A program made the translations under genes and the position numbers. A stretch of 64,000 nt of DNA from an uncultured Bacilli bacterium (GTDB taxonomy: Bacteria; Bacillota_I; Bacilli_A; RF39; UBA660), in NCBI GenBank assembly GCA_934120715.1, contig CAKOUW010000001.1:262599-326598 (forward strand). The letters are read 5' to 3'. Position 1 is the first letter of the stretch. Each line of letters starts with the position of its first letter. Shown piece after piece: positions 35,158 through 42,977 of this stretch. Below the pieces are notes generated by a model. It was given only the letters and a program-made list of their open reading frames with translations, did no database searches and was not told where the DNA came from.

Positions 35158-35280
35158 AACACGCTACCTCCTCAATCGAAAGTTTATTATACACTAACTA
35201 TAAATAAAAATCAATTGCTTTAGCCAATTAAATCAATCTAATTATGTTAAGCATTAACAAAATTCTCTATTTAGATATAA

Positions 35281-35600
35281 CTTTAGCTATTGTTTCAAAG
35301 TCACATTTTGAATTAATTGCAGGTATATGAATAAAGGCCATTTTTATATCTAAGGACTTATCTTTAATATATTTCATATTTTCATAATAGATATTGTTGC
35401 TCAAATAATTTCCAGCATTTGTTGGTAAAAAATATACACTGTTGTTTTCTTTCGAAAATTCAACAAATTTTTTCTCTTTATTTCCAAATAGTTCTATATA
35501 AATATGGTCGCAATGATGTTTTTGCCCAAATGAATTATATATTTGTATCTATTTTTGCTAATTTTATTTTCTAATTCTTTTACTTTATTCGTAAAACTCC
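35281..35600 (-). pseudogene. degraded gene remnant at the left border of the island
   Basis: GAGGAG RBS followed by ACG (not ATG) and about 25 in-frame codons. A frameshift then leads into an ~90-codon open frame (HHCDHIYIELFGN...AFIHIPAINSK). No intact ORF in the track. Confidence 0.3.
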
Positions 35601-35777
35601 TCACTTTCCTTATAACAAAAAAACTAGACGGTAATTCTAGTTAATATTTATTACTACTCAAAAAGTTCGAGCTATCAATCAAATCTGGTGCGATAGTTAA
35701 GATAGTCCGAAACCATCACAACAAATAAATAAACAATTTAATTCTATAACCATTATAACACATTTTTAATTAATTGC

Positions 35778-36563
35778 TTATGAATTTTGCATTTCTGTTA
35801 TGGTTTTTTCTTTTATATGATAGTCAATATTTCTTTCTTCACAAAACTTAATAACTTGATTTGCTAGATTATTATAATATTCTTTATAACCTTTATATTG
35901 ACTAACAAGTTTATTATAATGAAGTCTGCCAAATATTATTTTATCTACAAAAGAAATAGAATTTAGTATTTCTTCAAAATTTTGATCAATTATATTTGGT
36001 GTAGGATAAGGTTCAATACTAACCCAAGTTTTACATCCTTTATCATGAAGTTTTTTTAAACTATTAATTCTATCTAAATATGGTGCTGACCCAGGCTCCA
36101 TCTTTTTTCTAAATCCTTCATTTAGAGATATAAGAGTTATACCATAACTATTGTCTTTACTCAAATCTGCTAATTCTATTGGTAATACTCCTTTAGTTAA
36201 AGCAGTACATGGCAAATTATAACTATTTATTAGTTTGATAACATCTATTGATAAATTGCATATATCTTCATATCCATACATAAAAGGATCTGTGGTAAAG
36301 CATAAATGAACACTTTTTATTTTATCTTTTAATTTAGGTAGTTCTTTATTTAAAAGTTCCATTGTGTTTGAAACAATAACTGGACAAATCCATTCTTCAT
36401 AAGTTTTTACAGTTCCAAATCTTTTGGCTAACATTGAGGCATAACAAGGATACTTACAACCATGTGAACAACCTTGAACATGATTTATAGTATAATCACC
36501 ATATTCTACACCTGTTTTATATAGAAGAGATTTTCTAGTTAAAGATTTACTACAACTTCCCAT
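35778..36563 (-). CDS. SPL/photolyase-like radical-SAM homolog with atypical CX3CX3C motif (261 aa)
   Basis: N-terminal NHVQGCSHGCKYPCYA. This matches the COG1533-type GCxHxCxYCYA motif but has one extra residue between the second and third Cys. Confidence 0.6.
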   Translation of the reverse strand: MGSCSKSLTRKSLLYKTGVEYGDYTINHVQGCSHGCKYPCYASMLAKRFGTVKTYEEWICPVIVSNTMELLNKELPKLKDKIKSVHLCFTTDPFMYGYEDICNLSIDVIKLINSYNLPCTALTKGVLPIELADLSKDNSYGITLISLNEGFRKKMEPGSAPYLDRINSLKKLHDKGCKTWVSIEPYPTPNIIDQNFEEILNSISFVDKIIFGRLHYNKLVSQYKGYKEYYNNLANQVIKFCEERNIDYHIKEKTITEMQNS

Positions 36564-36597
36564 AAGTATTACCTCCTTATTATCTAATACTATTATA

Positions 36598-37743
36598 TCA
36601 TACTTTATCGTTAATTTTATATTTACTTTCTTTATAGTTATTTTTTCTTACACCATCTGGTGTAATTTTTTCTAATATACCATCTGCTAATAATGGATTA
36701 ATAATTGGTTTTATGATATGTGAATCTTTTAATAATGAATTTTCTAGGACATAAGTTTCAATCTCTTCATAAGAAAGTTCACCTTTCTCATATGCAAGTT
36801 TAATTATTGATTCTTTCATAGGACCGCTATATGTACTTATTAGTAAATCATCCGTATTAAATAATTTTAATTGAGATTTATCTATATCAATTTGTTTTTT
36901 AAAAGATTCTTCACCATTAAACACTTCCCATATACTCTCTTTAATTAATTCTAAACCTCTCTTGTTTGGTGTAAAGAAAATAATATAATATAACTCTGCA
37001 TTATTTGTATTATTAAAGCGATAAGCAAATGAATACTTAATGTTTTTTGTATCCTTATATGTATTAATTAATTTATTTAATATTTCCTTATTTTCATCAT
37101 CATCTATATTAATATCAGTTATAACTGAACTTAGCTCATTTTTGATTGTAGACATTTTGTTTTTCGCAGATGTATTATTTTTATTTCTTGTAACATCACT
37201 ACTAAAATAATTAAATAATAATTCACAATAAAACTCATCAATAAATCTTTTAATAGTTGTTAATAGATTTGGTATTCCAAAGTTATATGGATCAGTATAT
37301 AACAATGTGAAGCAAGAATTACTAAATGTATTTTTTTTAATTAGCAAAGATAGATATTCTACAACATCTTTATCTGTAATATTAATCCTCAAATTATTTG
37401 GTATATTATAATTACTTATTAATTCTTTTAATACATTAATCTTATCTTTATCATAATCATTTAAAAACACATAAAATTGTTTAGCATCGTTTTCTTTAGC
37501 ATATTCAATAAATAATTCAATAACTTCTATACAAGTTCCTTTTATTCCATTTTTATAAATTCCTGCATTACACATGCTATCTATAAAAACAATATTTCTT
37601 TGTCTATAATTTACGGCAACATTCAACCATCTTCTAACATAATCCTTAATATATTTTATTTTATATTGTGTATGTAATTTTGCTTCATCTAAATACTTTT
37701 CGTTTTCTTTTGCTATTATTTCTAAATCTAAAACTTTATCCAT
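36598..37743 (-). CDS. partner protein of the three-Cys radical-SAM-like enzyme (381 aa), function unknown
   Basis: Same strand, 34-nt gap to the downstream gene. No catalytic motif recognised. Confidence 0.45.
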   Translation of the reverse strand: MDKVLDLEIIAKENEKYLDEAKLHTQYKIKYIKDYVRRWLNVAVNYRQRNIVFIDSMCNAGIYKNGIKGTCIEVIELFIEYAKENDAKQFYVFLNDYDKDKINVLKELISNYNIPNNLRINITDKDVVEYLSLLIKKNTFSNSCFTLLYTDPYNFGIPNLLTTIKRFIDEFYCELLFNYFSSDVTRNKNNTSAKNKMSTIKNELSSVITDINIDDDENKEILNKLINTYKDTKNIKYSFAYRFNNTNNAELYYIIFFTPNKRGLELIKESIWEVFNGEESFKKQIDIDKSQLKLFNTDDLLISTYSGPMKESIIKLAYEKGELSYEEIETYVLENSLLKDSHIIKPIINPLLADGILEKITPDGVRKNNYKESKYKINDKV

Positions 37744-40438: not shown

Positions 40439-42292
40439 TTAAAAATCTTCTTCGGTAACATTATCGGGTATTTTTTCAAATACATCTCTAATGTTTACCT
40501 TTATATCATTTGGGTTATTCTTTGTAGCAAGCATTCCCATTGATAACCAGTTATTATCTCCATTATTATCTTTTTGCAATGGGAATATTCTTACTGGAAC
40601 TTCATCTTTTAATATTGGACCAATATCTAATTTTTCAGTATCTTTATAAAATGTACCTTTATATAAATTAACCTCATAACATTCGTTCAGCCTATAAAAA
40701 TTTTGCATTATATCTTTAATACTAGTAAACTCACTATATCTTACTGGAATTGAAGTTTGTATTCCATTAAAGTCAATAATCATTTCTCTTTTACAATCGA
40801 TATAACCTTGATTAAATAACATCTTAAAATCTTCGTAGAAAGTACTTCTAAAATTAACTTTCTTAACAACATACATATTATTTATTTCTTCAAGTTTTAT
40901 ATCATCAATATATCTCATTATTATATCAGCTTTATCATCTCTATCTAAATCAGGCCAACATTCTTCAAATGCATGATATGTAAGTGGTAATTTAATTTTG
41001 TTAATATAGTCCATATCTCTTTTAAGTAATATATCATCAACAGTAAAATTTAATTGTTCTGCTTGTTGATTAGATATTATCTTTTCTTCTAAATCTTTAA
41101 TTAGATTATCTAATTTTTCAGTTTCATCTTTAAATTCTTCTATTGTAAACAACTCATTAACAAATCCTTCTTTTAATCTTTTCTTTTTATTATTTAGTTT
41201 CTTAATTTCTTCTTCTAGTTCATCTTTAGGATTTTCTAATTTATTTTTAAGTACTGGTAAGAAGAATTCATTAACAACTGAATCATATTCAAAAACATCA
41301 TTTAAAATATGCATTATTGCTTCTTCAATTTTATTTTCTTTAATATTGTTTTTACAATCTTCACATCTATAATAGAAATACCATTTATCATTTTTTACTT
41401 TATGAGTTGCTCCGCCAGCAAGTATTCTTCCACATTTAGAACACTTTAATTTTTGTAAGAAAAGATAAGTTTGAGTTCTCATATAATTCCTAGAATTCTT
41501 TTTCTTTTGTACTTGGCAGTTTTCCCATAATTCTTTACTTACTAATGGTTCAACTACATTTTCATAATAAACTGAATTGCCACTTCTTTTACCTGATACA
41601 TAATCTCCTTTATAAATTTCGTTAGATATTATTTTTAAAATGGTTGTATCTCTCCAATTTGTTTTACCTAATACTTTTTCCTCGTTGTAGATTTTAGCTA
41701 TCTTAACATAAGTACAACCCTCAAAATATAAATTAAATATTCTTATAATGATATCTTTAGTTAGTGGATCTGGTACTAATAATCTATCTACATGTTTATA
41801 ACCTAGTGGTGCTCTTGCTGGAATATGTCCTGCCTTAATTGCTCCAGATAATCCTACTTTTGTTCTCTCACTTGTTCTTTCTATTTCTTGTTGAGATACA
41901 CTCATTAATATTCTTGAAATCATTTTACCATTAGCATTTGTAGTATTAATATCATCATTAGCACAATCTAAATAAGCATTATTTTCTTCTAAAAATTTAA
42001 TAATATTTTCCCAATCGTAAACACTTCTTGTAAGTCTATCTAGTTTTAATACCACAATAGTATTACATTTCTTATCTTTAATATCTTGTAATAGTTCTTC
42101 AAATGCAGGTCTTTTATTACCAGTTTTAGCACTTATACCAGCATCTTTATAGACTTTATATATTTCATAACTTTTATATTCACACATAGCCCTTAATCGT
42201 TTTTCTTGTTCTGGTAAACTAAATCCTTCTCTTGCTTGATCCTCGGTACTAACACGAATATAAAGTCCTGCTACTTTCTTTTCTTCATTCAT
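40439..42292 (-). CDS. large serine recombinase (617 aa)
   Basis: N-terminal resolvase catalytic domain ([11 protein letters not shown] with the catalytic Ser), recombinase domain, Cys-pair zinc ribbon (CSKCGR...CEDC), long coiled-coil C-terminus. Confidence 0.9.
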
Positions 42293-42513
42293 TAATCTTC
42301 AACTCCTTTTCCTACAAAAAAGGGAGTCAAAAATACTAGTTAAAACTAATACCTTTGACTCCACTTAATTTCATATTATATTTTTTATTAATTGTGCTTT
42401 TGACCATAGTGTACCTCCTTTTTAATAAAAGACGGATACTGCTTGTCATTTATTGGTTTTATATAATATACTCAAAAATCCATTTTGTCAATTCCCTGAT
42501 TAGAGTATAGATA

Positions 42514-42795
42514 TTAGTTATGTTTTAAATAATTTTCTAATTCAGATAGTTTAATCTTATTATTTAAGTTTTCAATAAATATCTCATTAGAATAATTAAA
42601 AGCTAGAAAGGTTATATCGTTAATTATAATTCTATGTGGTTCTAAATATATAAGATTAGTTTTATCTATTGTCCTTAAATTACCATTAATAATAATTGGT
42701 TTAACACTACAAAACTCACAAATAAATTCTAATCTCTTTTTTAATGATTCTTCCATTCTAACTTCTTGCTTGATAACATTTACCATTTTAATCAA
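42514..42795 (-). CDS. hypothetical protein (93 aa) upstream of the recombinase
   Basis: ORF only. Could be an accessory or directionality factor, but there is no motif support. Confidence 0.35.
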   Translation of the reverse strand: MIKMVNVIKQEVRMEESLKKRLEFICEFCSVKPIIINGNLRTIDKTNLIYLEPHRIIINDITFLAFNYSNEIFIENLNNKIKLSELENYLKHN

Positions 42796-42904
42796 TCCTT
42801 TCTTTGAAAGACTTTTTTCTAAACAAGAAAAAAATCAATCCTAATTTAGAATTGATTGTCTATTTATTCTCGAAACTATAAAAAGTTCGAGCGGATTTCC
42901 CTAT

Positions 42905-42977
42905 GGTGCCGAAAGACAGAATTGAACTGTCCGCTGATCCTTACCAAGGACCTGTTTTACCACTAAACTATATCGGC
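42905..42977 (-). tRNA. tRNA-Thr (anticodon GGU)
   Basis: Hand-folded: acceptor GCCGATA with one mismatch, anticodon loop TTGGTAA, T-loop TTCAATT, encoded CCA. Confidence 0.7.

Follow-up and report, generated by a model that had tools for sequence, protein, structure and literature searches.

When recombination and mobilization genes lie in a row beside a tRNA gene, do they form a single mobile unit, and if so, where does it begin and end, and what decides where it lands? We addressed these questions for a 64,000-nucleotide stretch (hereafter the window; contig CAKOUW010000001.1 of assembly GCA_934120715.1) from an uncultured Bacilli bacterium, in which an initial annotation, made from the letters alone, had proposed an integrative mobilizable element (IME) with a large serine recombinase, a MobV/Pre relaxase and a region resembling an origin of transfer (oriT), abutting tRNA-Thr. 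The element ends were set by comparison with 100+ related loci (labeled L001 upward), most of which are metagenome assemblies. The modules, the ends and the insertion polymorphism described below back the proposal. As judged from these comparisons, the interval 35686-42903 on the minus strand (7,218 bp including the element's own core copy) is an intact IME with a probability that we put at about 0.85, and its relatives follow the CCA ends of several different tRNA genes and of the transfer-messenger RNA (tmRNA) gene.

Ends, target and occupancy of the element

The proximal end of the IME is the base right after the encoded CCA of tRNA-Thr(GGT), and its distal end is a GCACCA of its own, which puts the left limit at 35686, or at 35692 if this core copy is left out (Table 1). 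The core forms a 6-bp direct repeat, GCACCA (TGGTGC on the plus strand), present at the tRNA end (42904-42909) and at the element end (35686-35691). This repeat is all that the far end has in common with tRNA-Thr: there is no displaced tRNA fragment, and the 3′ part of the intact tRNA is identical to that of the tRNA at an empty site in another assembly (L104, see below). In nucleotide comparisons, homology to the window covers 42903 to approximately 38816 and then 35789 to 35686, the middle being unrelated. With one end at the tRNA CCA and the other at its own GCACCA, the IME therefore spans 35686-42903. A generic repeat finder did not reveal these ends because the repeat measures only 6 bp, and a search against Rfam returned nothing for the IME besides the tRNA. 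The element has a G+C content of 25.7%, compared with 26.7% for the whole window, and all genes of interest lie on its minus strand.

The element start TAGGGAAATCCGCTCGAAC stands directly 3′ of the CCA in all A-type loci (those with the far-end core CGCACCA), where it follows three different genes, namely tRNA-Thr(GGT) (the window, L011 and L013), tRNA-Leu(GAG) (L001 and L002) and the tmRNA gene (L012). The sequence GCTCGAACTTTT occurs in three copies in the window against 0.2 expected, and the AT-rich hairpin with its T-run, further into the proximal end, probably ends transcripts that read through from the tRNA. The far end of every copy reads ...GGTTTCGGACTATCTTAACTATCGCACCA, followed by unrelated DNA, and its last 29 bases are near-identical (at most 1-2 changes) in the 12 A-type loci listed. 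These limits agree with the initial annotation on the right, where the element abuts tRNA-Thr, and correct it on the left: the end that it had placed at 35160, by a decayed gene, lies at 35686, and the decayed gene is part of a separate 1.15-kb relic next to the IME. The motif TCGCACCA, which it had read as a tRNA-Leu-type 3′ end, is real (35686-35693, read on the minus strand), yet it is the IME's own core copy on the attR side and no separate element, and the supposed conserved tRNA-downstream hairpin is the IME's own conserved first 40 bases.

Table 1. Coordinates of the features in and beside the proposed element, with the evidence for each
Feature	Position	Strand	Basis
tRNA-Thr(GGT), target gene, intact with encoded CCA	42904-42977	-	ARAGORN; Rfam tRNA, 60.1 bits
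Proposed IME	35686-42903	-	Homology to independent loci at other tRNA genes ends at 42906-42910 and 35682-35686
Conserved proximal end	42828-42903	-	Starts TAGGGAAATCCGCTCGAAC; hairpin 42869-42892; AT-rich hairpin and T-run 42828-42858
93-aa open reading frame (ORF), family core gene	42514-42795	-	tblastn: 87 loci, always between element start and recombinase gene
Recombinase leader	42323-42491	-	Promoter-like TTGACA-17-TATTAT (42491..42463), then 18-pair hairpin and T-run (42362..42323)
Large serine recombinase, 617 aa, single copy in window	40439-42292	-	Pfam, PHROG, TP901-1 alignment
Candidate oriT, non-coding block, 250 bp	40189-40438	-	Inverted repeats and cross-clade conservation
Inverted repeat 1, CTAAGGT-GTTAA-ACCTTAG	40294-40312	-	Upstream of relaxase gene
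Inverted repeats 2-4	40261-40283; 40228-40243; 40210-40227	-	Upstream of relaxase gene
MobV/Pre-family relaxase, 448 aa, coiled-coil C-terminal half	38842-40188	-	Pfam Mob_Pre, 45.3 bits vs 25.5 cut-off
Cargo ORF, 300 aa	37827-38729	-	No family or PDB match; absent from other loci
Cargo three-Cys-motif partner protein TcmP, 381 aa	36598-37743	-	NCBIfam TIGR04474, 101 bits vs 53 cut-off; PADLOC PDC-M30A, 3.9e-20
Cargo radical-SAM protein, 261 aa, CSHGCKYPC motif	35778-36563	-	Pfam Radical_SAM, 44.5 vs 29.5 bits
Conserved distal end, ...GGTTTCGGACTATCTTAACTATCGCACCA	35686-35789	-	Second core copy 35686-35691; 86-93% identity in loci with different cargo
Adjacent recombinase-less unit, 1.15 kb, outside IME	34535-35685	-	L093 comparison; start and decayed-gene similarities

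Near the distal end lies an outward-facing TGnTATAAT box (35753-35762, minus strand; hexamer 35753-35758), 60-75 bases from the far end. Every clade examined retains the TATAAT, and several have a TG in front of it; it occurs in L044, L072, L093, L103 and L069 as well, and a conserved TTATAGAAATTA stands downstream of it. Transcription from such a box could cross the joint of the circle, enter the flank, or yield a short CCA-ending RNA. The distal end was also considered as a mimic of a tRNA T-arm and acceptor, or as a CCA-ending small RNA, and this idea was rejected: the stems show no covariation between clades (by eye), and the spacing is unlike that of a tRNA.

The search for empty sites suggested in the initial annotation was answered by a sister species, whose glycerophosphodiester phosphodiesterase (GDPD)-family protein is 76% identical to that of the window (43010-43729) and which provides clean empty and occupied alleles of the tRNA-Thr locus. 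In L104, the tRNA-Thr(GGT) site is empty, and the chromosome follows directly after the tRNA (...TTTCGGCACCA|GATTGTTAG...), whereas in L103 and L105 a 7,494-bp family element sits at the same point with the 7-bp repeat GGCACCA on both sides; the flanks of the empty and occupied alleles are 99.9% identical. The reverse case is found 2.5 kb away at the tRNA-Arg(CCG) end, which is empty in L103, whereas in L104 another family element has its far end next to that same flanking base. Directly after this tRNA-Thr, each of three other assemblies from the window's own species (97.5-98.8% identical in the right flank) has a different occupant, implying recent turnover. On the left side, L093 is 98.9% identical to the window across a gene for a flavodoxin-domain membrane protein (33542-34471) and splits from it at 34540, a different unit ending in ...CTAACTATGGCACCA (...GGCACCA) at the same chromosomal base. 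Homologs of the flavodoxin-domain gene at 77% identity stand in a non-syntenic context and gave no empty site. The gene order, whose conservation across distant relatives the initial annotation had set against mobility, is not fixed: the same backbone is found at tRNA-Thr, tRNA-Leu, tRNA-Arg and tmRNA genes with different cargo.

The recombinase-less unit next to the IME starts like family elements and some native tRNA trailers, with about 12 bases followed in turn by a CTCGAAC hairpin, AATAAAT and a terminator. It holds the decayed gene (approximately 35272-35581), which is similar to L061:18074-18416, as well as an intact 158-aa ORF (34681-35157) without a family match, and it ends in a degenerate core, TGATGC (34535-34540), where the L093 unit ends in an intact one. 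We consider this unit to be probably a decayed family member, devoid of recombinase, that was left in tandem. The flavodoxin-domain gene beyond it lies between a conserved 236-aa gene and the tRNA-Thr island, has no counterpart in the empty allele (L104:9042-9879) and is preceded by a sequence resembling an element start; it may be an older accreted unit. A ~1.1-kb mini-element was observed on a metagenome contig (L108, JAEEGL013177726.1, ~564-1701, reverse), where it lies behind the far end of another element; this non-autonomous derivative has both family ends and part of the 93-aa ORF, with neither recombinase nor relaxase. Elsewhere in the window, tRNA-Leu(TAG) (63062-63146) ends in TCGCACCA and is followed by GATTGATACTAAACTCGGACTTTTCGAG (~63030-63061), a trailer as found at the L103 and L104 empty sites; this end is a compatible and apparently unoccupied landing site, or an old scar.

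Could the island once have been mobile and now be fixed, as a domesticated defense island with an inactive recombinase and relaxase? Such a state would suit the failure to find an excision junction, the decayed relative beside the IME and the terminator-like hairpin between a promoter-like site and the recombinase gene. We nevertheless hold it to be quite unlikely, given that no core gene is truncated and each shows 92-98% identity to its copies elsewhere, that both ends and both core copies are intact, and that other assemblies of the same species carry different occupants.

Integration module, transfer module and cargo

The recombinase is recognized by the Pfam families Resolvase (6e-34) and Recombinase (5.6e-16), with Zn_ribbon_recom at 24.6 bits, 0.7 under its cut-off of 25.3, and it matches PHROG 95, "integrase" (9e-110). 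The catalytic serine and the zinc ribbon that the initial annotation had read in this protein were both recovered: YIRVS, with Ser15, aligns to YTRVS in the catalytic-serine region of TP901-1 integrase, and the zinc ribbon has its four cysteines, C284, C287, C310 and C313 (CSKC284, CEDC310). Residues ~350-410 form a charged helical stretch, in which a coiled coil was judged from the sequence alone. The weak match to NCBIfam XisF (129 bits vs a cut-off of 375) is explained by shared family only. Relatives of the recombinase number in the thousands, many of them 95-98% identical in gut metagenome assemblies, while exact-protein look-ups of the recombinase and of the GDPD-family neighbor returned no match.

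Between the 93-aa ORF and the recombinase gene, directly before the ribosome-binding site of the latter, sits the leader hairpin, which looks like a terminator or attenuator guarding recombinase expression. The near-consensus promoter assigned to this leader is only putative, since a consensus scan of the AT-rich region gave 63 sites against 66 expected from shuffles, that is, no excess. The 93-aa protein is a candidate regulator or directionality factor; it had no match in Pfam (also with relaxed settings), NCBIfam, PHROGs or PDB. Single-sequence AlphaFold models were unusable both for this protein (predicted local distance difference test, pLDDT, 41) and for the 300-aa cargo protein (pLDDT 35).

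The relaxase, which is present in 79 loci and in a single copy in the window, carries HNYR (residue 51) and HYDETSPHLH (residue 168). The second motif corresponds to HxDExxPHxH and not literally to the HxDExTPHxH given in the initial annotation, which had correctly recognized a relaxase. It aligns to HLDESTPHMH, the metal-binding motif of MobM (PDB 4LVI), in an overall match that is weak (E = 0.0017). The relaxase gene also has a PHROG match. Upstream of it, within 40210-40312, we found four inverted repeats where three had been annotated. The block between the recombinase and relaxase genes that holds them is much more conserved than spacer DNA would be: in a 17-member alignment of clades that are ~70% identical in their recombinases, it shows invariant stretches, including both arms of CTAAGGT...ACCTTAG. 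We propose this block as a candidate oriT. In a sister subfamily (L103:2386-9879, L101 and L105), the 600-aa recombinase gene overlaps the 412-aa relaxase gene, leaving no spacer, and the oriT there must therefore lie elsewhere; the cargo of this subfamily includes a 630-aa AAA_21/ABC-type ATPase.

The variable middle of the element probably carries genes for anti-phage defense or DNA modification, as the protein matches suggest. The TcmP and radical-SAM genes together resemble PDC-M30, a candidate defense system, with component A matching at 3.9e-20 and component B weakly; the radical-SAM protein has weak PADLOC matches to PDC-M41B and to PDC-M30B (7e-05 over 40 residues for PDC-M30B). Neither the 300-aa protein nor the 158-aa protein of the adjacent unit gave a match in PDB or relaxed Pfam searches. 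The backbone, consisting of the 93-aa ORF, the recombinase gene, the inverted-repeat region and the relaxase gene, recurs at 92-98% identity with other cargo. On backbones that are 95-98% identical, this cargo comprises a ThsB-type TIR protein (Thoeris), a CBASS cyclase (SMODS and AGS-C, 1e-153), AbiD and PDC-S56, as well as a radical-SAM pair, ABC exporters and a ResIII helicase. The radical-SAM cargo of L044 (14896-15805) and that of the window (35729-36634) are 96% identical in protein and ~90% in DNA, with different partner genes, although L044 is a tRNA-His-type element whose backbone is only ~81% identical to that of the window, indicating that cargo moves between clades.

As the initial annotation had stated, genes for replication, capsid or a conjugation pore are missing from the cargo. 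ORF, Pfam, NCBIfam and PHROGs searches of the IME gave no replication, capsid, terminase, primase or Rep gene, its six minus-strand ORFs of at least 90 aa included no pore or coupling protein in Pfam, NCBIfam or PHROGs, and Pfam and NCBIfam gave no tyrosine recombinase. This content bears on the reading of the locus as a phage satellite, a prophage remnant or an integrated Mob plasmid that moves by transduction or transformation, its "relaxase" having another role, for example, that of a "plasmid recombination enzyme." Such a reading would account for the PHROG match of the relaxase gene, for the six relatives on viral-classed contigs, some of them in tandem with other recombinase-bearing elements, and for the fact that no helper conjugative element was identified. 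We regard it as very unlikely, since capsid, terminase, primase and Rep genes are missing not only here but also from the annotated genes and sampled cargo of the other loci, the MobV metal-binding motif is kept, and the conserved inverted-repeat block is placed like the oriT of MobM. Moreover, those six relatives came from 2.9 million viral contigs, compared with 364 in genomes. Searches of plasmid and phage collections for DNA nearly identical to the IME gave no match.

Target choice and proposed mechanism

A scan of species-representative genomes gave the 364 relatives, and nearly all of the best 79 loci belong to uncultured gut Bacilli, "Tenericutes" or Erysipelotrichaceae metagenome-assembled genomes, Clostridium sp. 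CAG:417 and CAG:433, and Candidatus Onthousia. The counts that follow cover the first 92 loci (L001-L092), 82 of which extend far enough upstream to be scored. In 80 of these 82, xCCA stands immediately before the element start, the remaining two (L024 and L078) having no recognizable element start. Sixty of the 80 xCCA starts come after a tRNA or tmRNA gene and 17 after the far end of another family element, forming tandem arrays, while three are cut by the contig end such that only CCA is visible. Seen from the tRNA side, an element begins immediately behind 46 of the 86 distinct tRNA 3′ ends present in the loci. The recurrence of the same junction in more than 80 independent contigs makes an assembly artefact implausible.

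Recombinases that are 95-98% identical sit after tRNA-Thr(GGT), tRNA-Thr(CGT), tRNA-Leu(GAG), tRNA-Leu(CAA), tRNA-Arg(CCT) and the tmRNA gene. In the window's recombinase clade (at least 85% identical), the target core is xCACCA in all 19 resolved cases, at Thr, Leu, Arg and tmRNA genes, and the target cores of other clades are GCTCCA (tRNA-Gly), GCCCCA (tRNA-His) and CTACCA (tRNA-Met). The cores at the far ends match these targets, being CGCACCA in A-type, CGCCCCA in tRNA-His-type, CGTACCA in tRNA-Met-type and GCTCCA in tRNA-Gly-type elements, and the recombinase clusters track the core. Within a shared core of 5-7 bp, CCA is the sole part common to all clades, and the crossover dinucleotide would for this reason be placed most simply within CCA.

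Based on these correspondences, we favor with moderate confidence a model in which the recombinase clade reads the discriminator base and the encoded CCA as its crossover core, the attP of each subclade carrying a matching discriminator (A for Thr, Leu, Arg, Phe and tmRNA; T for Gly; C for His; and TACCA for Met). A core of this kind would allow one integrase to use many tRNA genes as harmless landing pads, and the family would then be the first multi-target tRNA-end serine integrase system, acting as a shuttle of defense genes that builds tandem arrays in uncultured gut Bacilli. The sequence CTCGAAC, found about 13 bases past the CCA at three proven empty/occupied sites, was considered as a required right half-site and rejected, as several other occupied sites and most native trailers lack it. 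On an IMG/VR contig (L111:2804-4905), a family element that starts after ...GGCTCCA has directly upstream of it a second recombinase, which is only 40% identical and comes with its own relative of the 93-aa ORF; sites of this type may thus also serve serine recombinases that are more distantly related.

A mobilizable transposon of the Tn4451/Tn4453 type has the same two-module plan and a similar size, and it would insert with low target specificity, making the position behind a tRNA incidental; the occurrence of very similar recombinases at many target genes superficially looks like such low specificity. We give this little credence: every resolvable insertion (80 of 82 loci) is at the xCCA end of a tRNA gene, a tmRNA gene or a family element, the ends are xCCA rather than the 2-bp ends described for Tn4451, and the best relatives in plasmid databases are only ~30-35% identical. 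The alternative raised in the initial annotation, a skin-like element that a serine recombinase excises during sporulation to restore a host gene, as some large serine recombinases do, has next to nothing in its favor beyond the SpoIIP and germination protease genes near the locus in a syntenic contig, since the insertion follows the last base of tRNA-Thr and splits no ORF at either junction, a relaxase is present, the cargo is swapped and occupancy is polymorphic within the species.

How would an IME of this kind move? We propose that the recombinase would recombine the attP carried by the circle with the extreme 3′ end of a tRNA or tmRNA gene. The attP would consist of the distal end ...CTATCGCACCA joined to the proximal start TAGGGAAATCC..., with a predicted joint CTTAACTATCGCACCA|TAGGGAAATCCGCTCGAAC and a predicted restored attB TTTCGGCACCA|GATTTGATTGATAGC, and the crossover would take place inside the shared core of discriminator and CCA, (G)CACCA here. 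Because the element brings its own core copy, the tRNA stays intact and the core becomes a direct repeat of 5-7 bp, while the first ~75 bases of the element would provide the tRNA with a new hairpin/terminator-like trailer. Excision by the same recombinase, perhaps aided by the 93-aa protein, would restore the tRNA locus and release a circle. The MobV relaxase would then nick the conserved inverted-repeat region upstream of its own gene and lead one strand into a mating pore supplied by a conjugative element in the same cell, a helper pore being needed because the island encodes no pore or coupling protein of its own. In the recipient, the recombinase would insert the circle at any compatible tRNA end.

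Several points weigh against the interpretation of the locus as a mobile, tRNA-end-directed IME. An attP-junction search found no circular junction: its single match, on a metagenome contig, is a tandem arrangement or mini-element, and no match came from the viral collection. Excision by serine integrases generally requires a directionality factor, which was not identified for the IME, nor was a conjugative helper identified for these uncultured hosts. The relaxase scores below the NCBIfam MobV equivalog cut-off (33.5 vs 100), the oriT is called solely from conservation and position, and the cargo is assigned by its match to a defense family that is itself only a candidate. Finally, beyond xCCA neither target arm is strongly conserved, and four compatible tRNA ends in the same window are unoccupied.

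Significance and relation to known systems

Neither this family nor a serine recombinase that targets CCA ends turned up in the literature searched, whose coverage is incomplete, so that an earlier description is possible. The large family of serine-recombinase islands at tRNA CCA ends in uncultured gut bacteria is thus apparently undescribed. Landing in tRNA genes has so far been credited almost only to tyrosine integrases; here, nearly identical enzymes of a serine-recombinase family are found at six or more RNA genes. For recombinase engineering, the family is a source of enzymes in which a single-base change seems to have re-tuned the core from clade to clade. In the gut microbiome, it appears to be a principal means by which poorly known bacteria exchange anti-phage systems (CBASS, Thoeris, Abi and several candidates), and it explains arrays of relic units beside host tRNA genes.

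The best-studied serine-recombinase IME is Tn4451/Tn4453 of Clostridium perfringens and Clostridioides difficile, with the TnpX serine recombinase and the TnpZ MobV relaxase (PMC5704250). Like it, the window's element measures 6-7 kb and combines one large serine recombinase and one MobV/Pre relaxase, whose target site lies upstream (a putative one in the window), with cargo and no pore or replication genes. Tn4451 has low specificity and 2-bp identical ends, whereas the window's family uses only the xCCA ends of tRNA/tmRNA genes or of family elements. Matches in the plasmid collection were all at most ~35% identical, and the separation from TnpX and TnpZ is made by description only. According to a 2017 review of IMEs (PMC5704250), serine-recombinase elements insert within genes or with low specificity, and it is tyrosine integrases that use tRNA 3′ ends; IMESag-rpsI, an IME with a MobV relaxase, has a tyrosine integrase, unlike the window's element. 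On the transfer side, the likeness is to MobM and the oriT of pMV158, which has three overlapping repeats immediately before mobM, with the nick 8 nt beyond the first of them (PMC5863519). Both systems have a relaxase with HxDExxPHxH and an N-terminal HxxR, and several inverted repeats directly upstream of the mob gene, although the oriT sequences are not alike.

In its choice of site, the family resembles Islander-type islands with tyrosine integrases (PMC4383910), which also use tRNA/tmRNA genes as safe sites, keep the target functional and form tandem arrays from repeated use. Those tyrosine recombinases cut inside the gene and duplicate a substantial tRNA fragment, whereas here a serine recombinase places the insertion at the gene's final base, and the element has only 5-7 bp in common with its target. 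The tycheposons of Prochlorococcus (bioRxiv 10.1101/2020.12.28.424599) likewise bring cargo to a handful of tRNA/tmRNA genes, with matching between clade and target and with tandem arrays, and a minority of them have a large serine recombinase; in contrast, most have tyrosine recombinases, their flanks are partial tRNA copies, many carry replication genes, they have no relaxase and their hosts are marine cyanobacteria. In the ssrA islands of Dehalococcoides, the CcrB-like serine recombinase DsiB targets the tmRNA gene, inserting in the T-loop with a 20-bp repeat (PMC3146451). As in the window's family, the islands occupy a tRNA-like gene at its 3′ end, keep a conserved integration module ahead of cargo that varies, and line up in tandem with units devoid of a recombinase. 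They have one target, two recombinase genes and no relaxase, whereas the window's family inserts after the final A of CCA with a 5-7-bp repeat, at many tRNA species, and with one recombinase and a MobV relaxase.

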